DNA of 64,000 nt from Patescibacteria group bacterium. Lineage in GTDB: Bacteria; Patescibacteriota; Patescibacteriia; UBA9570. The stretch covers positions 290,268 through 354,267 of the forward strand of contig JBAZWO010000001.1 of NCBI GenBank assembly GCA_041660305.1, written 5' to 3'. Below, piece by piece: positions 23,283 through 40,585 of this stretch. The position numbers and the translations under genes are program-made. Under the pieces are notes generated by a model. The model had not been told where the DNA came from. It did no database searches and saw nothing but the letters and a program-made list of their open reading frames with translations. How positions within the stretch are numbered: position 1 is the first letter of the stretch; each line of letters opens with the position of its first letter.

Positions 23283-24116
23283 TTATTTCGTTACCTTCTC
23301 CTCCGAAAATAACACATAATCAAAATAATTATTTAGAGGCGACCGCCATAACATGTTCGCCGTAACGGTTTGCTGATATTGCCCGGTGGTGCTAACACTA
23401 CTGATGGTAATTGTTTCTTTTAGCGGCACAAATTTAGTAGAGTCATTAATATCTAAAGCTTTAACTGATAAATCTGTAATATCACAATACAAGGCTTTTA
23501 AGCGCAGCTTATAAAGATAATCACGAGTTAAACCAAAACTACACCCATTATTGCATTCGTTATATACCCAACGTGTTTTTTGCATAGCTGTATTTTTAGT
23601 TTCACTATCCCATTCTTGTACCGTCCAAGCGGTGTCACTAATTTCTAATGTATTCACGTGCCCATCTCCACAGCTATTATTTGTCCAAGAAAACTGCACT
23701 GAACCAATATTATCCGGTACAGTAGTTAAGTAACTTAATGTTTTATTATAACTTTCCGTATAAAGATGCAGCTGATTCACTTCATTCTCAGCTAACGATA
23801 ATATTAATTCTTCATCCTGTGCTTGCGTAATTATGGTTTTACCAGCCGTAATAGTTTGTAACCGTTCATTCAGTGTAGTTGGATCTATTGTTTTAGCTGT
23901 TCGCGCCGACTGGGCATAATACAAACCCTGTTCCACTCCACTTTCAGCCGTCATAAAACCTAACGTGCTTTGCTTATAACTGGTAACAAAGCGTAAATTA
24001 TTTAAAATAATTAACGCTAACGTGCTAATAATCGCCGCAAAAATTATCAGCATAATCATTACAATTACTAACACCGAGCCGGCTTGATTAGTGGATAATT
24101 TAGCTTTAGCGTGCAT
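23283..24116 (-). CDS. PilX-like minor pilus protein (N-terminal hydrophobic helix)
   Basis: 277 aa with N-terminus NQAGSVLVIVMIMLIIFAAIISTLALI. It is the last gene of the pilin cluster. Confidence 0.5.
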   Translation of the reverse strand: MHAKAKLSTNQAGSVLVIVMIMLIIFAAIISTLALIILNNLRFVTSYKQSTLGFMTAESGVEQGLYYAQSARTAKTIDPTTLNERLQTITAGKTIITQAQDEELILSLAENEVNQLHLYTESYNKTLSYLTTVPDNIGSVQFSWTNNSCGDGHVNTLEISDTAWTVQEWDSETKNTAMQKTRWVYNECNNGCSFGLTRDYLYKLRLKALYCDITDLSVKALDINDSTKFVPLKETITISSVSTTGQYQQTVTANMLWRSPLNNYFDYVLFSEEKVTK

Positions 24117-24648
24117 AGTATCTACTAGTAGTTAAAGTTTGAAAATGCGTAGTAATTTTTGGATCATCAGCGCGCTGGGCATCTATTACCATCATTACTG
24201 CCGGCTGATTATTAACTGAACTACCATCGGCTTGAATAACTGTTGGGTCAGCGTTTGGATAAATATAAAATTGCAAGTTAGTTATTTTAACATTATTTCC
24301 GGTTAACAAATTAGTATCTATAGTAATATTACCATTTGTAGATAACTCTATTATATGCGTTTCACCCGTAACCGTGGTAACCGTTAAAAAATCAGTATAC
24401 GCTGTAGCTGCGGTATAATTAAAACTTTTTCCTTCCCGAATATAGCGCGCAATTTCACTGGTAGCATAAGTTACTTGTTCTTCCAGTTGTTTTTTACGAA
24501 TTTGCTGCAATGGCCCGCGTAAAAACATAATGAGTAATTGCATAACTGTAACTATAACAATAGCAAACACGGCTGTGGCCACTAACATTTCCACTACGGT
24601 AAAACCTTCTACTCGTTTATGTTTATTTAGTAATGATAGGATCGGCAT
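24106..24648 (-). CDS. Minor pilin with prepilin-type N-terminal cleavage/methylation motif
   Basis: 180 aa with KRVEG|FTVVEMLVATAVFAIVIV. Confidence 0.7.
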   Translation of the reverse strand: MPILSLLNKHKRVEGFTVVEMLVATAVFAIVIVTVMQLLIMFLRGPLQQIRKKQLEEQVTYATSEIARYIREGKSFNYTAATAYTDFLTVTTVTGETHIIELSTNGNITIDTNLLTGNNVKITNLQFYIYPNADPTVIQADGSSVNNQPAVMMVIDAQRADDPKITTHFQTLTTSRYYAR

Positions 24649-25327
24649 ATTTCCAATTATATAATTTTTCAGTAAAAATACGTTCTTGCTGTTCTCCGGC
24701 CTGTTGCCATATTACCTGTACCATAACCTGCACACCAATATCAATGTATCCACCGTCAACACAAGTAAGCGCTTCTGCACGCACTATTTCTGCCTGTGTT
24801 AAATCAGGTTCATTCGGATTAAAACAAATGGGAAATAACGTTACTAAGCGTTTAAATGGTGTGGCTGTTAAACCGATAAAATCATTGCCGCTGATTTGTA
24901 GATAATTTCCAGCCGTATCTTGCCGCACAATGGCTCTAGCATCCGATTCGTTGTCTACCGAAAAATCAAATTTAATAGCTAAATTAGGATCAACCTCGCT
25001 AGGTGTCCAAATATAGATAGCACTATAATCAACATTATCTGTGACAGTTTTACCATACAAACCTGTGTTATATCCTAATAAATTACTAGTAGCACTATCG
25101 GTAATACCAGCTTCCCGTTTTAGCCAGTTGCTATCGCGCACATAACGCGCCGCCTCGATAGCTTCCTGGCCAAGCTGAGTAGCTCTAGTTTCTGCTAACG
25201 CTCTAGAACTAGTAGACCATAAATTTACCAACAACGAAGCTAAACTAACAACACCAATTAAGATAATAGCAATCGCCATTAATGATTCTAATAAAGTTTG
25301 GCCGGATTGATTAGGTTGTTTCAACAT
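24623..25327 (-). CDS. Minor pilin with prepilin-type N-terminal motif
   Basis: 234 aa with NQSG|QTLLESLMAIAIILIGV. Confidence 0.65.
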   Translation of the reverse strand: MLKQPNQSGQTLLESLMAIAIILIGVVSLASLLVNLWSTSSRALAETRATQLGQEAIEAARYVRDSNWLKREAGITDSATSNLLGYNTGLYGKTVTDNVDYSAIYIWTPSEVDPNLAIKFDFSVDNESDARAIVRQDTAGNYLQISGNDFIGLTATPFKRLVTLFPICFNPNEPDLTQAEIVRAEALTCVDGGYIDIGVQVMVQVIWQQAGEQQERIFTEKLYNWKYADPIITK

Positions 25328-25333
25328 AATTTA

Positions 25334-25876
25334 TTACTCAATTAACGCGCTAGGATAATATAATGTTACTGGATTTTTTATTTGTTTTGTAGCTACATCT
25401 TGAAATACCACTTGAACGTTACCATTACTATTATAAACCGTGCCCCAATCTTTAGCATCAATAGTTACGGCTGTACTATTATTCCCTAAATAAAACATAA
25501 TGTCTTTAAAAATACCATCTGGTTCAACTTTTGTGTCAAAGTTTGTTGTAGACAAAATAACATCTTCAGTATTAGCTTGGTAACTTGGCGCATTATTTAA
25601 TTCCGCGTATAAGTTAATGGCCTTGTCCGTGCTATCAATGAACACGCCGTAGGCTTGCGGCGCTTGATTATTACAACACGTTTTTCCTGTTCTGGCATAC
25701 GTGCGCGCTAAGGTTAAGCTAGAACGATATTGATTCGCCGCTTCGGTAACCAAATCTTCCGGACTGCGCTGGCGAAAACTTAATAACGTAATAGTAGATA
25801 ACACCGCTATCATGCCCATTACGGTTACTAATTCAACTAATGAAAAGCCTGTTTTATCGCCACACATATAACACAT
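25334..25876 (-). CDS. Minor pilin with prepilin-type N-terminal motif (FimT/GspH-like)
   Basis: 180 aa with DKTG|FSLVELVTVMGMIAVLS. Confidence 0.7.
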   Translation of the reverse strand: MCYMCGDKTGFSLVELVTVMGMIAVLSTITLLSFRQRSPEDLVTEAANQYRSSLTLARTYARTGKTCCNNQAPQAYGVFIDSTDKAINLYAELNNAPSYQANTEDVILSTTNFDTKVEPDGIFKDIMFYLGNNSTAVTIDAKDWGTVYNSNGNVQVVFQDVATKQIKNPVTLYYPSALIE

Positions 25877-26630
25877 TGTGCATATACCAATAAACTAACG
25901 GCGTACCGTATAATAATCCTAACCAAGTGGCCACGCTTAAAAATGTACCAAACGGCAGACGATCTTGCATGGTTTTGCGGCGCCAAATTAACAACGGCAC
26001 CGCTACTACCGTGCCCAGCGCGTAAGCCAACAATAACGTAACTGTAATATTTGGCCAGCCTACCATAGCCCCCATTAGCGCCCCAAAACGCACATCGCCT
26101 CCGCCTACCCATTTGCCACGTGAAATTAAAAACTGCATTAAGAAAAAACCAGCTCCGGTTATTATACCAAGCATTATATTAATAGGATTCATGCCTAATA
26201 ATAAACCGCCTATTATTGCTATCATAATACCCGGCAACGTAAACCTATCCGGCAACAAATAATATTTTAAATCATACACAAATAACACTATTAACAACGC
26301 GCTGTACACGGCATAAATTGTTAATTTAAGCGGCTCTGCCCAAAACCAGGCACCTAGTATTCCAAAAATAATCGCCGTAACGCTTTCCACTACTGGATAC
26401 TGCCAAGCAATACCAGCTTTACAATGCAAACACCGGCCGCGAATGCCGATATACGAAGCTACCGGAAATAATTCGTACCAACTTAATGTAGTTAAACAAG
26501 CCGGGCAGTGCGACCGTCCCAGCCAAGATTCTTTACTGTTCGTGCGCAATATCACCACATTCAAAAAGCTTCCTATACCTAAACCAGCTAATACCGTAAT
26601 AATAATGATAACTATCGGCCAAAGTAACAT
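25854..26630 (-). CDS. pilD: Prepilin peptidase (A24 family)
   Basis: 258 aa, polytopic. It has the Cys motif CPACLTTL...GRCLHCKA and the catalytic-Asp context GGGDVRFGALMG. Confidence 0.9.
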   Translation of the reverse strand: MLLWPIVIIIITVLAGLGIGSFLNVVILRTNSKESWLGRSHCPACLTTLSWYELFPVASYIGIRGRCLHCKAGIAWQYPVVESVTAIIFGILGAWFWAEPLKLTIYAVYSALLIVLFVYDLKYYLLPDRFTLPGIMIAIIGGLLLGMNPINIMLGIITGAGFFLMQFLISRGKWVGGGDVRFGALMGAMVGWPNITVTLLLAYALGTVVAVPLLIWRRKTMQDRLPFGTFLSVATWLGLLYGTPLVYWYMHNVLYVWR

Positions 26631-26655
26631 GTTTTATATTATACCATATAACACC

Positions 26656-26684
26656 AAGAGGCCGCAGATCTGCGGCCTCTTTTT
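26656..26684. terminator. 26-bp perfect palindrome hairpin between pilA and pilD
   Basis: AAGAGGCCGCAGATCTGCGGCCTCTT followed by a T-run on the plus strand. On the minus (gene) strand it is preceded by an A-run and followed by GGUGUUAUAU. This is the usual position for attenuation after a major pilin gene. Confidence 0.5.
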
Positions 26685-26712
26685 CAGATGCTTACTTAAT
26701 AATTTTTATAAA

Positions 26713-27300
26713 TTATTCAGAAACACAGTAAACATATGGGCCGCTACCATCTTCACAAGTAGCAAATGCATCTGGTGAACTAACCGAGTAAATAACACTA
26801 GTAGCAAAATCAGCGTTCGCCCAACCTGGATGATCAGTTGTGGTAGTACTTAAATACTTCGTATCATCATCCCCACTAAGGGCAGGGTTATTATCTTCCA
26901 ATTTTGATACAACAAAAACATATTGCGTTGCGTCGCCAGAAGTTTGCGATGCACTATTGTTAGAGTAAGCGTAATAATCTGAGGCGTCATTGTCTGGAGC
27001 AGCTGGCGCTTGAGTAATAAATTCACCAATACCACCGCTTGCTGCCGTAGTAGTAATAGATGTGTCATTAGCAACAAAAGCTGCCCAGTTGGCCGGATCT
27101 GGATACTCGTTGTATTTGTTATAGAACAATTCAATGGCTCCCTGGTATTGTTTAGCGTCGGCAACACGTTTAGTATCACGGGCTTTTCGTTGTGCACCAG
27201 TTAAGGACACAATGGCTAAGGTAGCTAACAAACCGATAATCGCGATAACGATTAATAGTTCGATTAGCGTAAAACCTCCTGTTTTTTTATGCTGTTGCAT
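26713..27300 (-). CDS. pilA: Major type IV pilin
   Basis: 195 aa with KKTGG|FTLIELLIVIAIIGLLATLAIVSL, the canonical class III signal. Confidence 0.85.
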   Translation of the reverse strand: MQQHKKTGGFTLIELLIVIAIIGLLATLAIVSLTGAQRKARDTKRVADAKQYQGAIELFYNKYNEYPDPANWAAFVANDTSITTTAASGGIGEFITQAPAAPDNDASDYYAYSNNSASQTSGDATQYVFVVSKLEDNNPALSGDDDTKYLSTTTTDHPGWANADFATSVIYSVSSPDAFATCEDGSGPYVYCVSE

Positions 27301-27344
27301 AAGTATGATATAGGCTAATGTTTAATTAATTAATTTATGTGCAC

Positions 27345-27373
27345 ATTATAGCATATATGGAAAATGGGGGCAA
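27345..27373 (-). promoter_or_regulatory. pilA promoter candidate TTGCCC-N17-TATAAT
   Basis: On the minus strand, TATAAT is at 27350-27345 and TTGCCC at 27373-27368, giving a roughly 38-nt leader. Confidence 0.4.
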
Positions 27374-27374
27374 G

Positions 27375-27415
27375 GTCTTGAACTATGATTTTTGTGATTA
27401 TTGAATCACTGAGAA
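27375..27415. promoter_or_regulatory. Conserved ~42-bp element, copy 1 (abuts the pilA -35)
   Basis: GTCTTGAACTATGATTTTTGTGATTATTGAATCACTGAGAA. The 16-bp core is identical in all three copies. Confidence 0.6.
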
Positions 27416-27449
27416 TTCTGAAAAATACTGACAATGCTGATAATACAAA

Positions 27450-28124
27450 TTAATTTAATTTTAATATCCGCTTAGTCACAACTGGTATTTCTTTTTGAAA
27501 ATATTTTTTTACTTGCGCCCAGGTAGTATCAAAAAATATTTCAGGCATTGGATCAATTTCCGCATCTGCAAAATACATTAAACTTTTCATAATATGATGA
27601 TAATCATGTGCCACCGTAGGATATTGCCTTGCTACACGTAAAATAATATCAAACAGGGATTCACAATGATGTAAATACCAATACAAATCAAAAAAATCAC
27701 GTTTTTTACCACGTTGGCTAATAGCTATTATTTTCATTACCGCAATATCACGCTTATCCACTATTGCCACATTACCAAAGTACAAAACTGGTTGCTCTGG
27801 AATAAAAAATGGATAGGCAATAAAACTAATTTTAGCATTATATAAACGTCCGTACACCGTTCCTTCTTCATTTACATCAGTATGCCAGATAGTTCCAGGA
27901 AAGTGTTTTAATAACACCGTTGTACGAAAATCTTTTTTTGGTAGAAAAAAATCAAGATCAAGTGATAAACGATGACCTACTTGTAATGTTAAGGCTGTGC
28001 CACCAGCTAAATACCAATCAGTGCCTTTTAACCAAGACTGGTTTGATAAATACTCCAAAGCCAGTCTGGTGTTTTTTGGAATATTATTAAGATGCCAGAT
28101 TATGTTTTGCTTAGTGCTAGCCAT
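27450..28124 (-). CDS. Nucleotidyltransferase AbiEii/AbiGii-family toxin (type IV TA)
   Basis: 224 aa with the hallmark LAGGTALTLQVGHRLSLDLDFF. Confidence 0.8.
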   Translation of the reverse strand: MASTKQNIIWHLNNIPKNTRLALEYLSNQSWLKGTDWYLAGGTALTLQVGHRLSLDLDFFLPKKDFRTTVLLKHFPGTIWHTDVNEEGTVYGRLYNAKISFIAYPFFIPEQPVLYFGNVAIVDKRDIAVMKIIAISQRGKKRDFFDLYWYLHHCESLFDIILRVARQYPTVAHDYHHIMKSLMYFADAEIDPMPEIFFDTTWAQVKKYFQKEIPVVTKRILKLN

Positions 28125-28351
28125 AACAAACGAGTTTTGTCTCGTAAAGATCGTGATTGTTTAGCGACATCGACCAACAGAGTATGAGAGTAAGTCTGCC
28201 ACATCCAGCGAGCTTCTTTATCTGTACCAAAATCCATAATCCGTTCAATAACGTAACGAGCATGTTTTTTTGGGTTAATAGTTTTTGGATCCACATCCCA
28301 AAACAAAGTTTTCCGCCGTGGCATTTTTTGTAACATGTTAGAAGATTTCAT
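28100..28351 (-). CDS. Small upstream partner of the AbiEii toxin (candidate antitoxin)
   Basis: 83 aa, overlapping the toxin gene by 25 nt. It contains FWDVDPKTINPKKHARYVIERIMDFG. I could recognise no wHTH, so the role is inferred from position. Confidence 0.45.
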   Translation of the reverse strand: MKSSNMLQKMPRRKTLFWDVDPKTINPKKHARYVIERIMDFGTDKEARWMWQTYSHTLLVDVAKQSRSLRDKTRLLWLALSKT

Positions 28352-28357
28352 ACCCTA

Positions 28358-28421: not shown

Positions 28422-28426
28422 AATTT

Positions 28427-29638
28427 TTACTGCATATTACTACTAGCCGTATAGATTGGCATTAAAATTCCTGTTACCATAATACCAGCACCAATACCAA
28501 GAGCAATAATAACTACCGGCTCAATTAAGCTGGTTAACGTAGCTAACATGCCATCAACTTCTCGCGTATAAAATTGCGCCAATTTATTTAACACTTCATC
28601 TAACCTACCAGTTTCTTCTCCCACCGTCATCATTTGTGGCATAATTACTGGAATATTTTTATCATGCATAAACACTGTAGCAATAGAATTGCCCCCTTCT
28701 ACTTCTTTAACCGCTTTTCTAATTAATGTTTGGTATACTAAATTATCTACCACATCAGCAGAAATTTCCAACGATTTAGTTACTGGCACACCACTGGATA
28801 ATAAACTAGATAAACTAATGGCAAAACGAGTAAGCGCAATTTGTTGATATAATTTCCCCAACACCGGAATTTTCAGCTTCCATTGATCTAAATAATAAGC
28901 CCCCTGGTCAGTTCTAGCAAAGGCCGCCACTGCTACAATAATCAAAGCTAACAAAAATAAAATTAACCACCAATAATGTGCTAAAATATAGCTAGTACTT
29001 AATAAAATTTTGGTAGTCCAGGGTAATTCAGAACCACTTTGAGTAATAACTTCTGCCAATTTTGGCACTACATAAATCATCATAATAGCACCAATCACAA
29101 CCATAGCACTGATAATCACAATTGGATAAATCATGGCGCCACGAATGCGACTTTTTAAGCTGTAATCTTTTTCTTTTTGTTCAGCTAAATACTCTAATAC
29201 TTTATCTAAACGACCAGTGGTTTCACCGGCTTTAATCATGTTTACAAAAAATTGATCAAATATTTTTGGATACCGCGCCATGGCTACTGATAATTTAGCA
29301 CCGCCTTCTACTGCAGCCGCAATATCAGCCACCGCTAATTTAAACGTTGGATTATCAATTTGTTTGGTAAGAGTTTTTAACGCTCGTACCACCGGAATAG
29401 AAGCATTAATTAATACCGCAAATTGTCGGGCAAAAAATGCTATCTCTTTTACACTCACATGTGCCAACCAACTTTTTATGGTGTTAACTAAAATTGATTG
29501 CGGTTGTTCTTTTACAGCTATAACAATTAATTGTCGATCTTGTAATAATTGTTGCGCATCACTTAGCGTATTAGCCTCTACCGTGCCACTAACTGTTTGA
29601 CCGGTTTGATACTTGGCTGTGTAGGTAAAATTTGCCAT
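28427..29638 (-). CDS. pilC: Type IV pilus platform protein PilC (GspF family)
   Basis: 403 aa with a duplicated GspF-type domain and three TM segments. Confidence 0.9.
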   Translation of the reverse strand: MANFTYTAKYQTGQTVSGTVEANTLSDAQQLLQDRQLIVIAVKEQPQSILVNTIKSWLAHVSVKEIAFFARQFAVLINASIPVVRALKTLTKQIDNPTFKLAVADIAAAVEGGAKLSVAMARYPKIFDQFFVNMIKAGETTGRLDKVLEYLAEQKEKDYSLKSRIRGAMIYPIVIISAMVVIGAIMMIYVVPKLAEVITQSGSELPWTTKILLSTSYILAHYWWLILFLLALIIVAVAAFARTDQGAYYLDQWKLKIPVLGKLYQQIALTRFAISLSSLLSSGVPVTKSLEISADVVDNLVYQTLIRKAVKEVEGGNSIATVFMHDKNIPVIMPQMMTVGEETGRLDEVLNKLAQFYTREVDGMLATLTSLIEPVVIIALGIGAGIMVTGILMPIYTASSNMQ

Positions 29639-29653
29639 GGTAATATGATTAAA

Positions 29654-31390
29654 TTATGTTTTAGTGGCATTCCACACTTCTTCTAAAGTAGTTAAACCAC
29701 GAAATACTTTTATTAAACCATCTTGCCGTAAAGTGAACATACCTTGTCGTTCTCCTTCAACTTGCATAACAGCGCTATCAGACCCTTGTTTTTCGCCAAT
29801 AATTTTACTAAGTGTTTTGGTGTTTTCTAACACTTCGTTAATAGCAATTCTACCATGATAACCGGTTCCCTCACAATAATTACAACCCGCTCCTTTAAAC
29901 GCTTTAAACGGTGGAAATAATTTAACATTGGTGGGCAAAAAACGCTTGGGCATTTGTTTTATTTCGGTAATAATTTCCTGTTCCGCGTCTTTGTGTAATT
30001 CCACTGGCTGCCGACAATGTTCACAAATTTTTCGTACTAAACGTTGTGCTACCACCACATTCAGCGCACTAGCAATTAAAAACGGCTCTACTCCCATATC
30101 CATTAACCGAGGAATCGCTCCAAAAGCATCATTAGTATGCAAAGTAGATAGTACCATATGTCCAGTTAAGGCAGCGTGCACGGCTAATTCAGCTGTTTCG
30201 TTATCACGAATTTCTCCTACCATCACTATATCCGGATCTTGCCGCAATACCGAGCGTAACCCCGTAGCAAAAGTTAAACCAATTTCTGGCTTCATTTGTG
30301 ATTGAGCAATCCCCGGTAAATTATATTCTACTGGGTCTTCCAAAGTAATAATATTTACCCCTTCTTTATTAATAATAGAAATCATGGAATAAAGCGTGGT
30401 GCTTTTTCCAGAACCAGTTGGACCAGTAACTAATAATAAACCATGTGGCCGATTTAGGTGTTGTGATATACGTTCTAAATTACGATCTTGAAAACCTAAT
30501 GACACTAAACTAAGAATACTAGCTGACGTATCTAAAATACGTAATACTACTTTTTCATTATTTAGCAAGGGCAAAGTTGATACGCGAAACTCAATATCCC
30601 GTCCATCCACCTTCATTTTAAAACGACCATCTTGTGGTAACCGGCTTTCATCTAATTTTAGATTGGCTAATACTTTAATGCGTGCAATTAACGCTTTATG
30701 CACTTTAATGGGTAACACTAAAGAAGTGTGTAAAATGCCGTCTACTCTATAACGTACTCGCGTTTCATCGTTTACTGGCTCAATATGCACATCGGAAGCG
30801 GCGCCTTCAATAGCGTGTTTTAAAATTACCGAAATCATTTTCGATACTGGCGCGGTTTTAATCACTTCTTTACTATCTTCTTCCGGTAAATCAAAATCCA
30901 CATCACCAATATCCGCTGTAGCTAAAGCTTCTTCTACGGCAATATTTAAATTTTCATATTGCTGTAAAACATGTTTTAAACTAGTTACGGTTGTAAGATA
31001 ATATTTAAAACGCCATTTTTGTTGTTGTCCAATAAAATCCAATACTTCTACCGCGCGATAATCTTCTGGATGTAAGCAGGCTACGCTAACCTCTCCTGCG
31101 GCCAATTTAAACGGCACTAATTGGTAATTCTCGGCAGTTTCTTGCGGAATAGTTTTTAATACATCAGCGGCCACCTGTTGTTTTGTTAAATCAATGGCTG
31201 GCAACTTTAATATTTCGGCTTTAATAGCTAAGAGCGTTTCTTCGGGCACTAAATTATTTTGTTCAACAACAGTTAAAGCGGCGGCTTTATTATTATTGCT
31301 TTGCTGTAAAACCTGCTGAATCTGCTCGGCGGTTAATAATTGTTTAGCTTGTAAGATATCTAAAACTTGTGTAGCAAAATCAGCCCCCAT
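29654..31390 (-). CDS. pilB: Type IV pilus assembly ATPase PilB (GspE family)
   Basis: 578 aa with Walker A GPTGSGKSTT, Asp/His boxes and the tetracysteine motif CEHC...CNYCEGTG. Confidence 0.92.
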   Translation of the reverse strand: MGADFATQVLDILQAKQLLTAEQIQQVLQQSNNNKAAALTVVEQNNLVPEETLLAIKAEILKLPAIDLTKQQVAADVLKTIPQETAENYQLVPFKLAAGEVSVACLHPEDYRAVEVLDFIGQQQKWRFKYYLTTVTSLKHVLQQYENLNIAVEEALATADIGDVDFDLPEEDSKEVIKTAPVSKMISVILKHAIEGAASDVHIEPVNDETRVRYRVDGILHTSLVLPIKVHKALIARIKVLANLKLDESRLPQDGRFKMKVDGRDIEFRVSTLPLLNNEKVVLRILDTSASILSLVSLGFQDRNLERISQHLNRPHGLLLVTGPTGSGKSTTLYSMISIINKEGVNIITLEDPVEYNLPGIAQSQMKPEIGLTFATGLRSVLRQDPDIVMVGEIRDNETAELAVHAALTGHMVLSTLHTNDAFGAIPRLMDMGVEPFLIASALNVVVAQRLVRKICEHCRQPVELHKDAEQEIITEIKQMPKRFLPTNVKLFPPFKAFKGAGCNYCEGTGYHGRIAINEVLENTKTLSKIIGEKQGSDSAVMQVEGERQGMFTLRQDGLIKVFRGLTTLEEVWNATKT

Positions 31391-31396: not shown

Positions 31397-32293
31397 TTAT
31401 AAATTGGTAATAAATGGTTGCGCGTTACCATAAGGTGCTAGCGCATAATTTTTAGCTGATTCATTACCAGCTTCATCTGTAGCCGTAACACTATAATAAT
31501 ATGTTATACCGGCTTGCTCAGTACTGTCTAACCAAGTAGTACTGGTAGCAGTGGTAGTAGTTATAACTTCTCCGGCTAAACCAGGCTGTTCCGAACGATA
31601 AATATTATATTGCACCACATCGTTTTCCGGAGTAGCTTGCCAAGTAATTTCAATAGCCGTTGGATTAGCAGCGCTAACCTTAACCGCGGTTAAGGCTGGA
31701 GCTATCGGTGCTATACTATCAGTAATGGTAACCATATATGTTTCCGATAACGCCGAGGTTTTTACAGAACCATCCGCTAATTGCCGATAAGTTTGTGCCG
31801 TATAATAATACACTTGATTATTAGTTACGGTATTATCATGATAATTTCCATTAACCTGCTTAACCTTAGTTAGCTCGGTGCCAGGTACATTAACTTCATT
31901 AGACCGATAAATAATAATTCCATCATAATCATTCGTTTCTCCAAACCATTCAATAAAGGCTTGCTGTCCAAAACCAGTATCCTGTACTGTTACCATCATT
32001 GGTAAAGCTGGCGTTGGATAGGGGTGGGCTCGTGCCGCTAATTGTTCTAAATAAGCCCCTTTATTAAATTGCTTTAAACGATATACTTGCGCCGTAGCTA
32101 AAGAATCAAGTGGTAAATTTTTTACAATGGCCGCATTAACCATTTGCTGTTGACTACTTACTTGTCCACTAATCATTTGCTCTTGTACAGCGCTGTATTG
32201 TTTAATCCACCAAACTACCGCCGCCAATATTAACAATAGTCCAATTAAAACTAGCGTAGCCCGAGTGATATAAGTGCGTATATCTTGTTTCAT
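31397..32293 (-). CDS. Membrane-anchored protein with two fibronectin-III-like domains
   Basis: 298 aa with an N-terminal TM helix and FN3-like endings YYYTAQTY and YYYSVTATDEAGNES. Confidence 0.5.
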   Translation of the reverse strand: MKQDIRTYITRATLVLIGLLLILAAVVWWIKQYSAVQEQMISGQVSSQQQMVNAAIVKNLPLDSLATAQVYRLKQFNKGAYLEQLAARAHPYPTPALPMMVTVQDTGFGQQAFIEWFGETNDYDGIIIYRSNEVNVPGTELTKVKQVNGNYHDNTVTNNQVYYYTAQTYRQLADGSVKTSALSETYMVTITDSIAPIAPALTAVKVSAANPTAIEITWQATPENDVVQYNIYRSEQPGLAGEVITTTTATSTTWLDSTEQAGITYYYSVTATDEAGNESAKNYALAPYGNAQPFITNL

Positions 32294-32907
32294 GGCGTAG
32301 TTAAATTACGTTGATAAACCTGTAATAACAAGGTGAAACTATCGGCTCCCGGACTATATGATAACGAGCTTAATTCTAATATCCGAGCATTATTTTCTAG
32401 TTGCTGCAATAATTTCTTAAAATCTTCATAATTAGTATTATTGCCCACGATATTAACCGTTACTTGCGTACGCGTAAAACCTTTTGGCACACCGGTATTA
32501 TTTGTTGCTCCGCTTGCCGGACTTGTAGTAGGACTAGTTGGTGCAGTATTAGCAATATTAATGCTTTGCACAGTAAAATTAGTCTTGCTAAACACTGCTT
32601 CAATTTCGGCAAATAATTGCTCGGTTGTAGCTGCCGGCAAAACCTGATTAACCACCACGAGCAATCGTTTATCCAATTGTTGATAATATTGCTCCATAGT
32701 TTTTAAATCTGCTAAATATTGTTGGCGTTGCTCTAACACAGTTACGGATTGTTGGTAAGTTTGCTTGCCAGAATTTTGAAATTTTACATATTGCGGATAA
32801 ATAATAAAATATCCACCAAATAAAATAAGTACTCCAAATATAATGGCTAAACTATAAGCAAAATATTTATCTACTATTTGATATATTTTATTTTTTGAAA
32901 TATCCAT
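32290..32907 (-). CDS. pilO: PilO-like pilus alignment protein
   Basis: 205 aa with a single TM helix, a coiled-coil and a small C-terminal domain, positioned after pilN. Confidence 0.55.
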   Translation of the reverse strand: MDISKNKIYQIVDKYFAYSLAIIFGVLILFGGYFIIYPQYVKFQNSGKQTYQQSVTVLEQRQQYLADLKTMEQYYQQLDKRLLVVVNQVLPAATTEQLFAEIEAVFSKTNFTVQSINIANTAPTSPTTSPASGATNNTGVPKGFTRTQVTVNIVGNNTNYEDFKKLLQQLENNARILELSSLSYSPGADSFTLLLQVYQRNLTTP

Positions 32908-34420
32908 TATGATAGAAAGTTAATACTTCGGGATTCAGCTGTAAACTAATATTAAATGTTACTACTCCATTATTTACCACTGGAGTTACTGGAACAGTTG
33001 CAGCGGTAGTTTTAGTTACAGCTGATTCAACACCACTAGTAGCCGTAACTACTTGAACCGATTGAATGTATTTATCGGCCTGTTTAAAAACTGCTAATTG
33101 ATGACTAATACTGGCATAATCCGAAGTAACTGCTTGCAATGTAACTACCCCTTTTTCATCCGCATTAACCAAAGTAAAATAAACATTAGGTAATGTATAC
33201 TGTTCTAATATAGTAAAAATATTAGTCCAATAATGATGTTGCTCCAAGGCCTGATTAACTGTAGTAATTTGGTTAGTTAAATTATTAATATTTTGTTGCA
33301 ATGGCTGATAAGCTACAATATTAGTTTCTAATGCTGTAATTTGTTCTAAATTAGCATTGGTACGTAACACATAATATGTTTGATAGCCCAATAATAATAA
33401 ATAACCAACTGCCAAACTCACCACCGCTAACAATCCTGTATTAATTAATTGCTGAATTTTATGAACCAATGGGGTTAAAGTAATACGAAAATGCGGTAAT
33501 AAATTAATATGCAGTAAATTGGCTGACACTTTATCTGGGTTAGTAGTTTGTCCGGCAAATTCAGCTACATTTTGTGCTCGTACATCACCTAGCTGAGTTT
33601 TTTGTGCCACCGCTGGTTTTAAAACAGTTTTATCAACTTTATCACTATTTTTATCACTCAGCTTACTTTGATTATTATTTTGAATAACAGTGGCTGTTGC
33701 TTTGTTACTAACTGTTCTAAGGCTAGCCGGTACACCTTTTAATGGAGCTAGTGGTGCTGGTGGTAATGTTTTAATAGCTACCGGCTTTGGCATTGGTACT
33801 GGCACAGGAATTTTTGACGCAATAATTGTTGGCGGTGCTGGTGGTGCAGGAATAACACGCAGGGCGGTTATTGTTTGCGTAGTAACACTGTGCGGAGCTG
33901 GTTTAATTTTCATTAACACGGTTTTTTCAGGCTTTTTTACCACGTTAATTGGAACTGATTGTATTTTTGGAATAATTGAAATAGCGGGAGTAGTTGTTAC
34001 AACTGGTTGACTAGCTTGATTAATAATAGGCTGATTAACGGTAGTTTTAGTTAACGGTTGTAACGAAGGGGCTAACTTAGTAGCTGTTTTTTCAATCACT
34101 ATATCATGAACTGGCATTACATTGGCCTGAGTAAGTGTATTGTTCGCTGTTTGAATAGGAGTAATCTCTGGTTTAGCTTGAGCTTGTGCTTGATTGCTAG
34201 CTGGAGCGTTTGACGCTGGTAGAGGACTCATTAACTTTACTGGCACCACTGGCGTAGCTGCTGATACTACATGTTTACGTTTACCTTTAAACCAATCTAA
34301 CCAACCACGCAAAGAGCGCTTGGATTGATTAGGGGTGGTATATTCCACAGCATAATGCTTCGGCTTAGTAGTAGCTGAATTATTATTGCCGCTTTGTTTT
34401 ACAAAATTTATATCACTCAT
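32888..34420 (-). CDS. pilN: PilN-like protein with ~300-aa Pro/Ala/Thr/Val-rich N-terminal extension
   Basis: 510 aa. The conserved PilN motif INLLP (LLHINLLPHF) and the TM helix occur only around residue 300. The preceding region is low complexity. Confidence 0.6.
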   Translation of the reverse strand: MSDINFVKQSGNNNSATTKPKHYAVEYTTPNQSKRSLRGWLDWFKGKRKHVVSAATPVVPVKLMSPLPASNAPASNQAQAQAKPEITPIQTANNTLTQANVMPVHDIVIEKTATKLAPSLQPLTKTTVNQPIINQASQPVVTTTPAISIIPKIQSVPINVVKKPEKTVLMKIKPAPHSVTTQTITALRVIPAPPAPPTIIASKIPVPVPMPKPVAIKTLPPAPLAPLKGVPASLRTVSNKATATVIQNNNQSKLSDKNSDKVDKTVLKPAVAQKTQLGDVRAQNVAEFAGQTTNPDKVSANLLHINLLPHFRITLTPLVHKIQQLINTGLLAVVSLAVGYLLLLGYQTYYVLRTNANLEQITALETNIVAYQPLQQNINNLTNQITTVNQALEQHHYWTNIFTILEQYTLPNVYFTLVNADEKGVVTLQAVTSDYASISHQLAVFKQADKYIQSVQVVTATSGVESAVTKTTAATVPVTPVVNNGVVTFNISLQLNPEVLTFYHNGYFKK

Positions 34421-34436: not shown

Positions 34437-35558
34437 TTATACTATTTCACGCATCGCTAAACCAATGGCCACCGATAAACGTGGGCCAATTTCGCTAAGC
34501 ACAGATTTTAATTCTACCGGATACACCACTCTAGCCCAAGGATCACCAATTACTACTTTCATATTTAAAACTTGCGACAAATATTGTGGTAAATTAGGTA
34601 ACCAAGCTGAGCCACCAGTTAGAATTATTTTTTCAATTTGATAACTGCTCTGATTATGATAAAGATTCAACACATACCGAATTTCGTTCACTACTGAGGC
34701 TACCATAAATTCAATGCGTTTGGGAATTTGGTTGCCCGTAGCCGTAGACGGAATTAAACCAAAATCACGTTTAAATTGCTCGGCTCTATCTACATCTACA
34801 TTTAAACTAGTAGCCACGGTTTTAGTAATAGCCTGCCCGCCTAAATCGATGCTACGATTTACTACTGGCACGCTAGCTACTACTACCGAAATATTGGTAG
34901 TAGCCGAACCAATATCCACCATCATCATTGGCATTCGATCGTGTCCTACTAATGACCGTTCCATGGCAAAAGCTTCGGTTTCCAAACTAATCAAATTCAT
35001 TCCGGCCATCTTAAAAATATCAATGTAATGATTCACTAAATCAGCTGGTGCGGCCGTTAATAATATTTTGTGATACTTGCGTGGTTGACTAGTAATTTGT
35101 GCCTGATTATTACTATCATTAGCACTAACATTAGCCGCTGGCATAGCCCCAGCCATAAAACCTGGCTCGTTATCTAATAATTTCCAATCCAAGATCATTT
35201 TCTCAATCGGCATTGGTACAAATTTTTTCGCTTCCCATTGCACCGCGGCGTCCAATTCCCGCTTGTTCATTTCTGGTAACGTAATAACCGAAGAAAACAC
35301 CGTGTAACTAGGCAAGGCCGCTACCACATTATTAGTAGTAACTTTGGCTTTATCAGCCACTTGTTTAATAGTGGCCACAATGTTTTGTTTGGCTTCCGGA
35401 CTGTTAAATTTCAATAACTTGCTCGGCCGCTCAATATAACCATAGGTAACCAATTTTGGCCGCCCTTTATCATTGTGCAATTCCGCCATTTTTAAAGACG
35501 AACTGCCAATGTCGATACCAATGTAATTATCCGATAAATGTAATGCCATACTGCGCAT
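34437..35558 (-). CDS. pilM: Type IV pilus assembly protein PilM (actin-like ATPase fold)
   Basis: 373 aa with the IGIDIGSSSLKMAEL phosphate-1 motif and PilM-like length. Confidence 0.85.
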   Translation of the reverse strand: MRSMALHLSDNYIGIDIGSSSLKMAELHNDKGRPKLVTYGYIERPSKLLKFNSPEAKQNIVATIKQVADKAKVTTNNVVAALPSYTVFSSVITLPEMNKRELDAAVQWEAKKFVPMPIEKMILDWKLLDNEPGFMAGAMPAANVSANDSNNQAQITSQPRKYHKILLTAAPADLVNHYIDIFKMAGMNLISLETEAFAMERSLVGHDRMPMMMVDIGSATTNISVVVASVPVVNRSIDLGGQAITKTVATSLNVDVDRAEQFKRDFGLIPSTATGNQIPKRIEFMVASVVNEIRYVLNLYHNQSSYQIEKIILTGGSAWLPNLPQYLSQVLNMKVVIGDPWARVVYPVELKSVLSEIGPRLSVAIGLAMREIV

Positions 35559-35593
35559 TATTATAGCACAAAATATTACTTGGCGTCTATACG

Positions 35594-38500
35594 TTATTTT
35601 ATCGTTGGCAAACTTTTGCTTAAATCTTCCAGGCCAGGCGGTGGATTGGTAATTAAGCGGGTATCATAAATAATACGTTCAGAAGCTTTATTACCAGATT
35701 CTGTGCCGATATTTTTTCTACCAAAATTAAATTTACGCGCTAATACCAAACCTTTAATTTCCAGCTGCAACGTACTAGGGTCGGTAATAAACGTAGCAAT
35801 ACTATCATCCGTTGGATTATCTAACGCAATATATGCTCCAGCTAATTTTGTTACCGCTGGCTTAATAGTAATTTTACCAGTAGCAATCCAAGCTACGGAA
35901 GCAATATTATAAATATTGCTAATTGACGTATCATAATAAAACGAATTAGCCGCTATTTCTAAATCACCTTCTACTACAACAGTACCGGATCCTAACTTAT
36001 CTGGTGTATTAGCAAAAATTAAATTATTATTAATGATTAACTTATTGTTTATAGCATCTGTTTTACAATAATACACTTTACCGCCTAATGATATATGATT
36101 TATAGATAATGTATTTAAGGCATTCATTAATTCAATACAAGAATTATAAGCCGTGCCCTGTTGCTTGGCTTGTTCAATTAATTCACTTACATGTAAATCG
36201 CCAATACTGCCTCGATATACTTGTGTACTGTTATTAGTTGGTACATTAACATTTCCATACGCCGGATTTTTGGCATAGTCCGTAGCGTTTTTTTCAGCAA
36301 ACTCACTAGTAAACCCAGTGATGGTATCATTGGCTTGAATTAAATAAGTGGCATTATATTGTCCAACCGGAGGTGTAGTATTAGCCGTAAAGCCTTTTTT
36401 AGCATATACATCGCCATATAAAGTCTGTAACCAAGCTTTGGTAGCACTACTAACATCGGCATCAAAGCGCATCCAGCCTAAACCGCTACCAGTGATAAAA
36501 TTATTAGCACCATCTGTGCCATTGCCATTCCAACTAAATCCAGAAAACTGCCGAGCTGTGGTGTCATAGTATACTCCATAATTTCCGGTAACATTACCTG
36601 AACTATCTTTAACATCGCCACGCAATTTTACCCAACCCCAATCATTAACGTTATACAAATCTTTACCGTGATTACTAATACTTGTCCACCGTGCCCAACC
36701 ACTCACCACACCCGTACGTTCGTCCCAATAGGCTGTTTTGTCTACAAAATCAGGCTTACTAGTTAAATCTGGCTGAAATTCTAACCAACCTAATGTTTTA
36801 GCTTTATCAACAAACACGTCTGATACCGCATAATTCCCGACCCAAGCGAAACCTTTTATTAAACAATTCTCCGCGCAATCATCACCAATTTCTAATTGCA
36901 CACCGTATTTTGGCGTATCAGTTGCCACTGAATTTTCTGAAGCAAAACTAATAAACCCTACTCCACCACATTTACCTGGCAATAAAACACTTGGTACACA
37001 AGTTTCCTCCGCTGCATTGCCAATCCAGCCATAACCTTGGGCATTAGTATATAATGGAAATTGAATTACCTGCCAATACTGGTTGTTTAAATCGCTTTCA
37101 CCGTTTTCATCACTCCGCCAAAACGAAGCGGTAATTTTATCCTTGGCTGTTAATTGCGTTAACCAACGATTACGCGGAAACTCTTGTCCAGTACCTTTGG
37201 TAGTATTAGTAACAAACGCGAATGCTTTGTTGGTAGTATCTACCACTTTTGGTAAAGTAATTTCTTGATCATAGCGTTCGCCATCCGATTCAGTAGAGTT
37301 ATTTTCAACCACATTTTGCTGCGTAATTACAGTATTTTCCGGAAACGCAATCGCATAATAATTAATAGTGTTTACATATTCACCAGCTTCACTACGAGAA
37401 AACTCGGCTGTATTACCACCATCTGTGTTATTACAACCAACTGCTGCCGCGGCTATGCTATCTCCAGTAGTATTATAGGAACAATACAGCCATATCCTGT
37501 CTTGGCTGGCATTTAAACTATCAACGGTGGCAGAAACATCGCTAAAATTTGCTGGAATGGCTGTTTCGCCAGCTAGTATTTTTACATTCGAGGATTCAGA
37601 AAACGTTACTACTTCATAACGCGCCAAAGTGGTAGCTGTACTACCTCCACGAGCCACCTCTACAGTTTTATTATTTTTTAATTTACCAGTTACTAAACCA
37701 TTTTTTTCGGTAACTTGCGTATCGGCCGTACGAGAAGATACTAAAACCAGTGAGCGCGCGCTATCAACTATTGGAGTTAAATCGTTTGAATCGGCAAATG
37801 ATTCTTCATTATTAATAGTAATTTCACCGCGCTGCACCGAAAATTCATCTAGTTTACATTCCACTAACGTATATGATATTTGTGCCGTACCGGCCGTACC
37901 AATACGTTCAAACACTAATTCGGAAGCACTGGAAATATAACCACTCACCAAATGATCTGCAGCATTAACCACGTTACTATCTCCCGTACTGTTCACTAAC
38001 AAAAGCGCTTTGGTAATATTGGTTAACGACTTATCTAAAGTAACAGTCACACTGGTTTTATTTTCTCCGGTATCTGTGATGGTAGTTTCTCCTTGTTCTA
38101 CGCGGCACTGCGACCAATCAATTAATGGGACACTATTATTGGTAGTCTCTGCCGAACCGGTACCTTTTAGAGCAACACTTTGCAATTTTGGAGTAACCGC
38201 TGTATCACTAGTATTAAAAAATAATTTATATTGAATATATTGTTGTTTCATGTTTGCTAAAGCATAATAAGGCGCTCCATCAGCATTACTATCTAAATCA
38301 TTATAATAAGTACTGTCTCCATTGGGTCCAGTAAAGTTTTCTGTATCACAATTCACATCATCACACACTCGTAATTGCACGCCAAATTGCACTGCCCCCC
38401 TCATATACATATTTTCCACCTCCGTTGCAGACAATGCTCGCTTGAACACCGCCACTTCATCCATGTCGCCATAATATTGATTCTTGCCGGAAGTACCAAA

Positions 38501-40585
38501 GGCTTGCGTAGTGCCGAAACCAAAACGATCACCTTGTGCACCAGTAGGAACAGTAGTGGTATAAACTGACTGGCCGTTTTTATATAGTGTTACTTGGCCA
38601 CCACTATAGCTAATAGCCATGTGCTGCCATGTATCATAGGTAACTGGCACATTGGTATTGATAAAATAAGGCTGTGTCCAACTACCGTTACTAATGTAAT
38701 AATTATTTTGATAAATTTGAATGTTTCTACCATTGCTGTTATCACTTAACACAAAATGATAATTTGTGTCGTAATCTGCAACTGTAGCTGGTTTAGTTGG
38801 CTTAATCCAAACAGACCAAGTGGTGTTAGGCATAACACTATAGTTTAAATTAAGCCTTGGCGAGCTATAATCGTTACTAATATATTGATTAGTCTTTGTA
38901 AACGACGCTCCTTTAGCAAATACTGTATTAATATTTAATGTTGGGCAATTGTAAGACCCTCCCTGTTCAACGCCCAATACAGTTAGTGTGTGAATACCAC
39001 AGGTAAATTTATTGTTATCGGTAGTGCTAGCTTTATTAACAAATAAATTTGTGTTTTCATCGAGATGCCACAAGCCCACGATATCGTTCATGGACAGATT
39101 GTTGCTATAGCCTGTTTCTGAAGCACCAAAATCTGGGAGTGGTTTTTGGTAGGCCTGATAAGGTTGCCAACCTAAATAGTCCCATACCGTATTACTGTAA
39201 CCAGAATCTTTTATAGAAGAGGTAAACGTACCAGCTGTAACATATTTTCCTAAGCCATCATCAGCTAATTGCAAAAACGCTGTGCCGCCTGTACTAGCAA
39301 TGTCCGTATCATCATAATCTCCTCCGTCGTTAAAATTATTAGCCGCCGAATCTTCAATATCTGTAGAAGTAGTAATAGTAGCTCCTTGCACAGTAACATT
39401 AGATAATACCGGTGTAACACCAGAATCACTGGTAATAAAATCGGCTTTATATTGAATGTATTGGCTGGTATCCATTAATAAATTTTGAAACACTGGTGCC
39501 TCGTTAGTAGTATTTCCAGCATCAGTAAAAAAAGATCCACTAGTACCATCTGGCCCCATATAATTTCCTTGGCTACAAGTAGCATCGTTACATGCCCGTA
39601 ACTGAAATTTTATATCCGCCACTCCCCGCGCATACATATTTTCAATCTCCGCTTGCTCTAGCGTCCGATTAAACACCGCCACTTCGTCCATTTGCCCATG
39701 ATATTGATTGGCAGTAATGTTTGCGCCAGTATTCCCTCCCAACGTAAATTGGGTTCCTTGTGCCGTAATAGCCGCAACCGTTGTAGAAAATTGTAGTATC
39801 CCGTTTTTATAAAAACTAAGTTTTTTATTATCAAATACAACTACTAAATGCTGCCACTTATCATAATCTACTGTCACTGGTGTATATATAAAATTCCAAT
39901 TACCATAATAAAAAGAATAATAAAGTGATTGGGACGTGGCAGTACTATTTGGCCTATTTATTTGAATACCACGACCAGCATTAGCATCACTAATTACATA
40001 GTGTTGCTGACCATCATTGTTACTTGCGGTCGGTTTAATCCAAACTGACCAAGTGGTAGTAGGTAAAGTACTAGGATTTAATGGAGTGGTTATGTACTGT
40101 CGCTGCGCGTTAAAATTAACGCTAGTACCAAATTTACCAGTCGGTTCAAGCGCTGGACAATAAGTATTGTATGTTGTCGCGCAAGTGCCATTATTTAACC
40201 CCACTAGATTAGCCGTATCTTTAAAAGGGGCTGTAGCTTCATCTAAATGCCACAAGCCCACAATACCGTTCATGGACAGATTGTTGCTATAGCCTGTTTC
40301 TGAAGCACCAAAATCTGGGAGTGGTTTTTGGTAGGCTTGTTGTGGTTGCCAACTAAACTTACTCCAATCGGTTACGCCGCCAGAATTTTTAATATTTGAA
40401 GTATAGGTTCCTGATAACAATGTTTTATTATTCAGTTCTACCGCGTTAGCAACATTTAATTTAGTGTTACTAGTATAAGCACCGGCATCAAATTCGGCTT
40501 TTGTATCATCGGTAGCTAAATACGCCAAACTTAACCTTGGCAACAACACAAACACTAGCCCAAACATGATAATTCTTGCTTTCAT
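35594..40585 (-). CDS. Giant secreted protein with two LamG/ConA-like lectin domains; first gene of the pilus locus
   Basis: 1663 aa with signal peptide MKARIIMFGLVFVLLPRLSLA. It carries a duplicated roughly 394-aa unit. Each unit ends in the LamG_3-type motif W.H....YDG..L.LY.NG...QY.G.MDEVAVF.R.L...E.ENMY. Confidence 0.7.
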   Translation of the reverse strand: MKARIIMFGLVFVLLPRLSLAYLATDDTKAEFDAGAYTSNTKLNVANAVELNNKTLLSGTYTSNIKNSGGVTDWSKFSWQPQQAYQKPLPDFGASETGYSNNLSMNGIVGLWHLDEATAPFKDTANLVGLNNGTCATTYNTYCPALEPTGKFGTSVNFNAQRQYITTPLNPSTLPTTTWSVWIKPTASNNDGQQHYVISDANAGRGIQINRPNSTATSQSLYYSFYYGNWNFIYTPVTVDYDKWQHLVVVFDNKKLSFYKNGILQFSTTVAAITAQGTQFTLGGNTGANITANQYHGQMDEVAVFNRTLEQAEIENMYARGVADIKFQLRACNDATCSQGNYMGPDGTSGSFFTDAGNTTNEAPVFQNLLMDTSQYIQYKADFITSDSGVTPVLSNVTVQGATITTSTDIEDSAANNFNDGGDYDDTDIASTGGTAFLQLADDGLGKYVTAGTFTSSIKDSGYSNTVWDYLGWQPYQAYQKPLPDFGASETGYSNNLSMNDIVGLWHLDENTNLFVNKASTTDNNKFTCGIHTLTVLGVEQGGSYNCPTLNINTVFAKGASFTKTNQYISNDYSSPRLNLNYSVMPNTTWSVWIKPTKPATVADYDTNYHFVLSDNSNGRNIQIYQNNYYISNGSWTQPYFINTNVPVTYDTWQHMAISYSGGQVTLYKNGQSVYTTTVPTGAQGDRFGFGTTQAFGTSGKNQYYGDMDEVAVFKRALSATEVENMYMRGAVQFGVQLRVCDDVNCDTENFTGPNGDSTYYNDLDSNADGAPYYALANMKQQYIQYKLFFNTSDTAVTPKLQSVALKGTGSAETTNNSVPLIDWSQCRVEQGETTITDTGENKTSVTVTLDKSLTNITKALLLVNSTGDSNVVNAADHLVSGYISSASELVFERIGTAGTAQISYTLVECKLDEFSVQRGEITINNEESFADSNDLTPIVDSARSLVLVSSRTADTQVTEKNGLVTGKLKNNKTVEVARGGSTATTLARYEVVTFSESSNVKILAGETAIPANFSDVSATVDSLNASQDRIWLYCSYNTTGDSIAAAAVGCNNTDGGNTAEFSRSEAGEYVNTINYYAIAFPENTVITQQNVVENNSTESDGERYDQEITLPKVVDTTNKAFAFVTNTTKGTGQEFPRNRWLTQLTAKDKITASFWRSDENGESDLNNQYWQVIQFPLYTNAQGYGWIGNAAEETCVPSVLLPGKCGGVGFISFASENSVATDTPKYGVQLEIGDDCAENCLIKGFAWVGNYAVSDVFVDKAKTLGWLEFQPDLTSKPDFVDKTAYWDERTGVVSGWARWTSISNHGKDLYNVNDWGWVKLRGDVKDSSGNVTGNYGVYYDTTARQFSGFSWNGNGTDGANNFITGSGLGWMRFDADVSSATKAWLQTLYGDVYAKKGFTANTTPPVGQYNATYLIQANDTITGFTSEFAEKNATDYAKNPAYGNVNVPTNNSTQVYRGSIGDLHVSELIEQAKQQGTAYNSCIELMNALNTLSINHISLGGKVYYCKTDAINNKLIINNNLIFANTPDKLGSGTVVVEGDLEIAANSFYYDTSISNIYNIASVAWIATGKITIKPAVTKLAGAYIALDNPTDDSIATFITDPSTLQLEIKGLVLARKFNFGRKNIGTESGNKASERIIYDTRLITNPPPGLEDLSKSLPTIK
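39065..39154. repeat. 90-bp near-identical patch, copy B (inside the giant ORF)
   Basis: 88/90 identical to 40247-40336. It encodes AYQKPLPDFGASETGYSNNLSMNDIVGLWH. Confidence 0.9.
40247..40336. repeat. 90-bp near-identical patch, copy A (inside the giant ORF)
   Basis: See copy B. The offset is 1182 bp (394 codons). Confidence 0.9.

Follow-up and report, generated by a model that had tools for sequence, protein, structure and literature searches.

A large part of bacterial diversity belongs to the Patescibacteria, whose cultivated members live attached to host cells. Type IV pili (T4P) are their best-supported attachment device and, to our knowledge, the molecule that makes contact with the host has been identified only tentatively, and for the Saccharibacteria alone. 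A T4P without a secretin, encoded by co-localised pilB, pilT, pilC, pilM, pilN, pilO and pilD genes, is an established feature of the Candidate Phyla Radiation (CPR)/Patescibacteria (PMC6744442), and two such secretin-less pili, T4P-1 and T4P-2, have been dissected in TM7x, a member of the Saccharibacteria (PMC12206443). Here we describe a locus of this kind in a 64-kb stretch of a Patescibacteria genome (GCA_041660305.1, contig JBAZWO010000001.1), called the window below and used for all coordinates. Fifteen tightly packed open reading frames (ORFs) at 23283-40585, all on the minus strand, form an unbroken row, and the locus is a type IVa pilus operon of the monoderm type from a Kerfeldbacteria-like Patescibacterium; the PilM of the window is 70-74% identical to homologues in Kerfeldbacteria metagenome-assembled genomes. 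As in the described CPR/Patescibacteria pili, the parts are PilB, PilC, PilM, PilN, PilO, PilD, a major pilin and several minor pilins, with no PilQ (PMC6744442; PMC12206443), and the predicted role is likewise host attachment. The monoderm-type, secretin-less pilus recognised in a first-pass annotation of this DNA is supported, although that layout is itself not new, being already known for the group (PMC6744442). The main new result is instead the protein family defined by the C-terminal domain, module B, of the giant protein that heads the operon.

The giant protein has 1663 amino acids (aa), and its sequence is identical to the NCBI entry 'LamG domain-containing protein [Patescibacteria group bacterium]'. 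The gene and its parts are as follows.

35594-40585, minus strand: giant gene, 1663 aa, Sec signal peptide, two LamG units, module A and module B (ORF; Pfam Laminin_G_3)
40523-40585, minus strand: Sec-type signal peptide, MKARIIMFGLVFVLLPRLSLA followed by Y at the cleavage site, no prepilin motif; hydrophobic segment at aa 3-25
39356-40522, minus strand: LamG unit 1, aa 22-410, comprising a β-rich lead-in, Laminin_G_3 at aa 162-314 and a Cys-containing tail
38162-39355, minus strand: LamG unit 2, aa 411-808, collinear with the single LamG unit of the relative P0006
37037-38161, minus strand: module A, aa ~809-1183, four β-sandwich repeats (defined by HMMER matches at query positions 30-400 only)
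35597-37036, minus strand: module B, aa 1184-1663, the family-defining C-terminal domain, a GW-rich β subdomain followed by a predicted β-solenoid

We searched aa 790-1663 exhaustively with HMMER against 1.84 billion representatives, which gave 603 proteins (cluster representatives) at E<1e-3 and 458 at E<1e-10. These matches resolve into modules A and B. A word-index search had returned only the giant protein itself and unrelated LamG proteins, and the status of an orphan was overturned by HMMER search of the C-terminal 874 aa. The C-terminal ~900 aa, which the first-pass annotation had described as free of recognisable motifs, indeed have no Pfam or NCBIfam match, but they are made of two conserved modules and belong to a widespread family. 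No Pfam or NCBIfam model covers module B, and NCBIfam models gave zero matches to the giant protein as a whole.

Module B lies at the extreme C-terminus, with a tail of at most 7 aa, in all 143 profile-scored members, and none of the 143 carries a prepilin motif. The proteins of the family always begin with a Sec signal peptide. The basal form of the family is a signal peptide and module B only (~440-560 aa), as found in 79 of the 121 full-length members, and the remaining 42 are extended at the N-terminus by 61 to more than 900 aa. Across the family these additions are of adhesin type (LamG, CarboxypepD_reg-like and Cys-rich DUF4215), and in other lineages the N-terminal subdomain of module B is duplicated or other inserts are present, giving ORFs of up to 1,962 aa. 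No peptidoglycan-binding domain scored above threshold in the members, with one weak Amidase_2 match (E 0.023) in a single member. Conservation is highest over the last ~165 aa, G-x-G-T-I-I-V-x-G-D-L...N-L-A-S-V-A-W-I-V...Y-D-G-R...N-x-P-P-G-L-x-D...L-P (alignments A1 and A5), and the module closes with the motif ...YDxRLxxNPPPGLEDLxxxLP. Relatives that share 70-74% identity in PilM share 37-40% in this domain, a rate of change that resembles that of the exposed parts PilA, PilN and PilO. All named members are annotated 'hypothetical protein', they come from Kerfeld-, Komeili- or unclassified Patescibacteria, and we found no description of the family in the literature. Module B is an unannotated, widespread, operon-locked accessory family, of which the gene in the window is an unusually decorated member.

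The decoration consists of the two LamG units and module A. Laminin_G_3 (PF13385) matches the giant protein in two stretches (7.2e-39), in agreement with the two LamG-type modules noted at first pass, and the two units share 44% identity over 376 aa. The relative P0006 (from Logan; 1267 aa), with one LamG unit and an overall identity of 44%, is likewise encoded at the head of a pilus operon. Since unit 2 is the one collinear with P0006, unit 1 is the later tandem duplication. P0006 is the only relative in which LamG was found; none was seen in the other pilM-adjacent versions in the metagenome set. The LamG modules are a lineage-specific addition, and the two units of this window are the largest lectin load seen. 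Module A is found elsewhere as the N-terminal part of other secreted proteins.

Comparison across genomes ties module B to pilM. Modules A and B were seeded in 185,579 species genomes, yielding 14 loci, 12 of them with downstream DNA. In each of the 12, the same strand continues after the module B gene with pilM, pilN and pilO, usually a gene for a protein with fibronectin type III (FN3)-like domains, and then pilB, pilC, pilA and pilD. The order is identical in loci L016, L018, L020 and L101, which were looked up by exact protein and bring the total to 16/16 family-seeded loci; some of these four are distant, with PilM about 43-52% identical to that of the window (alignment A4). For the reverse test, metagenome loci were seeded on pilM, with at least 400 nucleotides (nt) of upstream DNA required (n=60). 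In 52 of these loci a module B gene immediately precedes pilM on the same strand, in one it is 5.6 kb off, and seven have none. It is the C-terminal module of ~480 aa that is kept beside pilM; the LamG part is not. The expectation that the giant gene would be conserved beside pilus genes therefore holds for module B and fails for the LamG units. Co-transcription of the giant gene with the pilus genes is suggested by the 35-nt gap before pilM and by this synteny only.

We used AlphaFold2 (AF2) with a 99-sequence alignment to predict the fold of aa 790-1663, obtaining a mean predicted local distance difference test score (pLDDT) of 89 and a predicted template-modelling score (pTM) of 0.79; a single-sequence run reached a pLDDT of 32 and was unusable. 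Module A is mostly predicted at pLDDT >90. Module B is predicted to form a β-rich subdomain and then many short strands, the expected pattern of a β-solenoid. The top Foldseek match in the PDB is ComZ of Thermus thermophilus (6qvi_B, E 2.7e-5, probability 0.99, 481 columns, template-modelling (TM) score only 0.24), and next among the matches are PCSK9 C-terminal domains, which probably belong to module A. At the sequence level, sub-threshold matches fall in the C-terminal half of the protein to DUF7305 (4 of 15 members, best 6e-4), a family for which we also found no paper, and to pAdhesive_15, a 'putative ice-binding-like adhesive domain' (2 of 15 members). The ComZ match, DUF7305 and pAdhesive_15 are three weak signals that agree on a fold class, with homology unproven. 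Matches in BFVD were to generic tail-fibre and tailspike proteins only, at very low TM-scores, and were set aside.

Downstream of the giant gene, the row continues as follows.

34437-35558, minus strand: pilM (Pfam PilM_2, 8.8e-44)
32888-34420, minus strand: pilN, 510 aa (INLLP motif, transmembrane helix, synteny)
32290-32907, minus strand: pilO-like gene, 205 aa, N-terminal transmembrane helix (Pfam PilO, E 0.0067; synteny)
31397-32293, minus strand: bitopic membrane protein of 298 aa with two FN3-like domains, in the pilP slot (Pfam fn3, 0.0021)
29654-31390, minus strand: pilB, extension ATPase (T2SSE and MshEN, 1.5e-132; TIGR02538, 1e-166)
28427-29638, minus strand: pilC, platform protein (T2SSF, 1e-52)
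27450-28351, minus strand: toxin-antitoxin pair, a DUF6922 antitoxin-like protein (1.5e-16) and an AbiEii nucleotidyltransferase toxin (4.6e-14)
26713-27300, minus strand: pilA, major pilin, with the prepilin motif G|FTLIE (N_methyl, 3.6e-8; GspG and PilA models match)
26656-26681, minus strand: strong GC-rich hairpin of 11 bp directly 3' of pilA and ahead of pilD (AAGAGGCCGCAGATCTGCGGCCTCTT)
25854-26630, minus strand: pilD, prepilin peptidase (A24_N_bact, 2e-26; Peptidase_A24, 1.9e-15)
23283-25876, minus strand: four minor pilins of 180, 234, 180 and 277 aa (prepilin N-termini; the last PilX/GspK-like)

Every gene of the pilus row listed at first pass is present at these positions on the minus strand, with support from hidden Markov model (HMM) matches and synteny. 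Intergenic gaps from the giant gene to pilC range from -26 to +35 nt, and wider gaps of 75-149 nt are confined to the surroundings of the toxin-antitoxin insertion and pilA. No related operon has a toxin-antitoxin pair between pilC and pilA; in L010 and L016, genes for DUF6922 or AbiEii are present at other places close to the operon. The hairpin behind pilA may be an attenuator for the pilin gene or a terminator.

The 510-aa protein has zero Pfam or NCBIfam matches. It is assigned as PilN because the PilM-binding motif INLLP is present at aa 305, just ahead of the only transmembrane helix (aa 324-348), and because the protein occupies the PilN slot in every related operon. Its first 304 residues (33506-34420, minus strand) form a ~300-aa cytoplasmic extension rich in Pro, Ala, Val, Thr and Lys that is probably disordered; the extensions of relatives are poorly conserved and variable in length, with total PilN lengths of 188-559 aa. 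The PilO-like protein and the 298-aa FN3 protein are weak by HMM alone, and their position is constant in every close relative; homologues in the PilO slot of related loci carry a precomputed Pfam PilO match. Besides PilA, three minor pilins begin with the prepilin motif of a pilin, G followed after the cleavage site by F/Q-T/S-L/V-x-E. The last gene, for the 277-aa protein (23283-24116, minus strand), has a PilX/GspK-like N-terminus without Glu5, and its aa 7-74 match the N-terminus of the NCBIfam model 'tapirin' (E 3e-6). Tapirin is a cellulose-binding protein from a T4P locus of Caldicellulosiruptor. As a set, the four minor pilins resemble a core of the GspH/I/J/K type.

The pilus genes and 39 other ORFs of at least 110 aa were scanned with Pfam, leaving out a few short or overlapping ORFs. 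No secretin (PF00263), N0/AMIN or PilP domain was found in the scanned ORFs of the window, nor did tblastn find a second PilB/PilT-type ATPase in the 64 kb; these searches confirm the first-pass statement that pilQ, pilP and pilT are missing from the window. The gene pilC begins 15 nt past pilB (29639-29653), with neither a response regulator nor pilT between them. In most of the relatives compared at this junction (L003, L004, L006, L007, L012, L013, L016, L018 and L020), a CheY-like response regulator (~125 aa) and a PilT-like ATPase (~335-360 aa) stand between pilB and pilC, and in the closest relatives, L002 and L101, the regulator is kept and pilT is likewise gone. The operon has lost the regulator and pilT pair of its relatives, and therefore the pilus of this window may be a non-retracting tether, if the genome has no pilT elsewhere.

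In the 298-aa protein, aa 95-286 match the FN3 region of the NCBIfam model CbhB (1.2e-10) and a transmembrane helix spans aa 5-36. It is kept in the pilP slot of L002-L007, L012, L013, L016, L020 and L101. When it was considered as a PilP, homology to PilP/GspC, the PilP/HR domain (PF04351) and a lipobox were all not found, and it has an N-terminal transmembrane helix instead. The first-pass view of an FN3 protein in the PilP position stands insofar as the protein is membrane-anchored and holds that slot in the closest clade, but it is clade-specific and uncoupled from the module B gene across operons. A PilP-PilQ-like partnership between the two was rejected, since many module B operons have no detectable FN3 protein; in L081 the FN3 protein is present and a module B gene is not adjacent.

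Further upstream of the giant gene lies another secreted protein.

43041-45893, minus strand: orf950, 950-aa secreted Gly-rich repeat protein with 'YGV.G' repeats and C-terminal 'DG.YIW' repeats

It has no Pfam or NCBIfam match. In L002-L007, L009 and L012 a homologue immediately precedes the module B gene, and orf950 is thus possibly part of the same conserved neighbourhood. Between orf950 and the giant gene are two Cys-rich proteins with the MopE 'putative metal-binding' motif (40853-41623 and 41915-42667, minus strand). This stretch has a GC content of 0.44-0.46, against about 0.38, and L013, too, has a homologue upstream of its module B gene. Some module B members carry another Cys-rich repeat, DUF4215, as an N-terminal fusion. 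A LemA and M48 peptidase pair (46126-47579, plus strand) runs divergently from the pilus region, and L016 and L020 have the same pair upstream of their module B genes, which points to longer-range synteny. At 56503-63925 (minus strand) there is a Patescibacteria-type type IV secretion cluster, that encodes two T4SS_pilin proteins, of which one also bears an SLT transglycosylase domain, together with a thioredoxin-like protein and a VirB4/TraG-type ATPase. On the other side of the operon, the stretch 18206-20700 has a GC content of 0.46, ORFs overlapping on both strands and no Rfam match, and is putatively coding; it includes a 497-aa ORF with a TTG start and no Pfam match (19002-20495, plus strand), overlapped by 19974-20525 (minus strand).

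The giant protein is a Sec-exported non-pilin that lacks a membrane anchor. It was rejected as a PilY1, a secretin or a true modular pilin, with no PF05567 domain, no secretin domain and no prepilin motif. Since the C-terminal domain that heads most related operons is here extended with two LamG modules, the protein is probably a pilus-linked adhesin. In its full form, a lectin-like adhesin displayed by the pilus, with module B docked at the minor-pilin tip complex, we put this reading at slightly short of an even chance. We propose that module B would dock the protein to the pilus apparatus, most probably to the complex of the four minor pilins, in a manner resembling PilY1 and CofJ, which are non-pilin tip proteins, and ComZ, a tip pilin that bears a solenoid. 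The N-terminal passenger would have been added stepwise, beginning with module A, followed by one LamG unit and then by a duplicated second unit, and may serve as a lectin-like head with which the pilus binds a target surface, presumably that of a host cell. Docking at the tip is favoured because the layout is PilY1-like, the nearest fold is that of a tip protein, the added modules are of adhesin type and the set of four minor pilins is complete.

Several points weigh against this proposal. We infer the placement of the protein on the pilus, as well as the docking site, glycan binding and host attachment, from sequence, synteny and predicted fold. The ComZ match, which probably falls on module B, has a low TM-score (0.24) and is reported with no query range, profile searches of module B (A1) and of the C-terminal half (A5) against PDB sequences gave nothing significant, and no sequence-level link joins module B to ComZ, PilY1 or any PDB chain. 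LamG domains are not invariably lectins. A tip protein of 180 kDa would need to traverse the cell wall and the S-layer. The seven of 60 pilM operons without a module B gene at this position indicate that module B is perhaps not essential for pilus assembly. Known tip proteins are encoded together with the minor pilins, and the giant gene is at the opposite end of the operon, adjoining the alignment-complex genes pilM, pilN and pilO. That position also speaks for another role, in which module B is an envelope-embedded collar or outer anchor that spans the wall or S-layer and partly does the job of the diderm PilP and PilQ. Its hold on the glycans of the cell's own wall or S-layer would then come from the LamG units and module A, much as PilQ is held on peptidoglycan by AMIN domains. 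Secretins share the layout of a variable N-terminus, with its exchangeable modules, and a conserved C-terminal domain, the basal form of the family has no separate binding domain, export by Sec without a membrane anchor fits such a part, and in the closest clade the same operons carry a bitopic β-sandwich protein in the pilP slot. However, no secretin, PilP or peptidoglycan-binding domain was found, the predicted fold is a monomeric solenoid with a β subdomain rather than a channel-forming one, and the FN3 protein and module B fail to co-vary across operons. The seven operons lacking the gene at this position, the fast divergence of module B and the adhesin-like character of the N-terminal additions also tell against an envelope role, which we consider the main alternative, though less likely than docking at the tip.

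Export without an anchor, from an operon shared with a machine of the T4P/type II secretion type, would also suit a cargo, that is, a secreted or surface-released adhesin or effector that depends on the pilus machine for export or release, and variable passenger domains are in keeping with this. There are precedents in TcpF, which depends on the Vibrio toxin-coregulated pilus, and in type II secretion substrates, which depend on a pseudopilus. In a monoderm without an outer membrane, however, Sec export already puts the protein outside, and cargo genes are rarely fixed in operon position across lineages whose PilM identity to that of the window is 43-74%, which makes a cargo improbable. Least probable of all is an independent surface protein, transcribed on its own and a neighbour of the pilus genes by chance. 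The LamG parts are not conserved elsewhere, and sequences resembling promoters were seen ahead of the giant gene (40622-40593) and also between it and pilM, within the 35-nt gap (35589-35560), but the promoter scan was barely above shuffled expectation (74 sites against 62 ± 7). Moreover, module B adjoins pilM on the same strand in 16/16 family-seeded and 52/60 pilM-seeded loci, and this synteny has already largely refuted a chance association.

For the family as a whole, we suggest tentatively, and with somewhat more doubt than confidence, that module B is a previously unrecognised, lineage-wide component of Patescibacteria T4P, either a docking domain for interchangeable adhesive heads or the extracellular part that is missing from the secretin-less machine. 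An exported protein that is conserved and unannotated and heads most of the sampled pilus operons in the Kerfeldbacteria-like group and its relatives is an obvious candidate for a missing part, and its swappable N-terminal modules, lectin-like LamG units in this case, offer a testable handle on host recognition. If docking at the pilus is correct, the giant protein would be the two-lectin version, and the variation of the N-termini would be a record of host or target specificity throughout the group.

Comparison with the described systems indicates where the module B proteins stand apart. Neither the module B gene nor the FN3 protein is mentioned in the descriptions of CPR/Patescibacteria T4P cited above, and no such term occurs in PMC12206443. 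The candidate adhesins of TM7x, PilX1 and PilX2, are large minor pilins without a predicted PilD signal peptide (PMC12206443), whereas the candidate described here has no pilin-like N-terminus and heads its operon. The TM7x T4P-2 also lacks pilT, like the operon in the window, and a non-retracting pilus was proposed there (PMC12206443). ComZ is a T4P protein with an ice-binding-protein-like solenoid inserted in a pilin fold, and is argued to sit at the pilus tip (PMC6561018). It has a pilin-like domain with a hydrophobic N-terminal helix and is encoded with pilins, in contrast to the module B proteins, which have a cleavable Sec signal peptide and no pilin domain. ComZ binds DNA, and there is no indication of DNA binding here.

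In another monoderm T4P, that of Streptococcus sanguinis, PilC (PDB 7oa7) reportedly bears a concanavalin A-like/LamG-type module that serves adhesion; the lectin module is said to be carried there by a true pilin, whereas in our locus it is carried by a non-pilin module B protein. A companion paper covers the modular pilin PilB of the same species, with its von Willebrand factor A (vWA) module (PMC8179133). The 298-aa FN3 protein resembles PilP/GspC in taking the slot after pilO, in being membrane-tethered and in having β-sandwich ectodomains; it differs in having no secretin partner and in being present in part of the clade only. The PilY1/PilC tip adhesins end in a seven-bladed β-propeller (PF05567) and are encoded in the minor-pilin operon, whereas the giant protein has no Pfam match to PF05567, is predicted by AF2 to contain a solenoid and is encoded away from the minor pilins. 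The two nevertheless have in common that they are Sec-exported non-pilins with a conserved C-terminal domain, for docking in PilY1/PilC and putatively so in module B, a variable adhesive or adhesin-like N-terminus, and a pilus with four core minor pilins.

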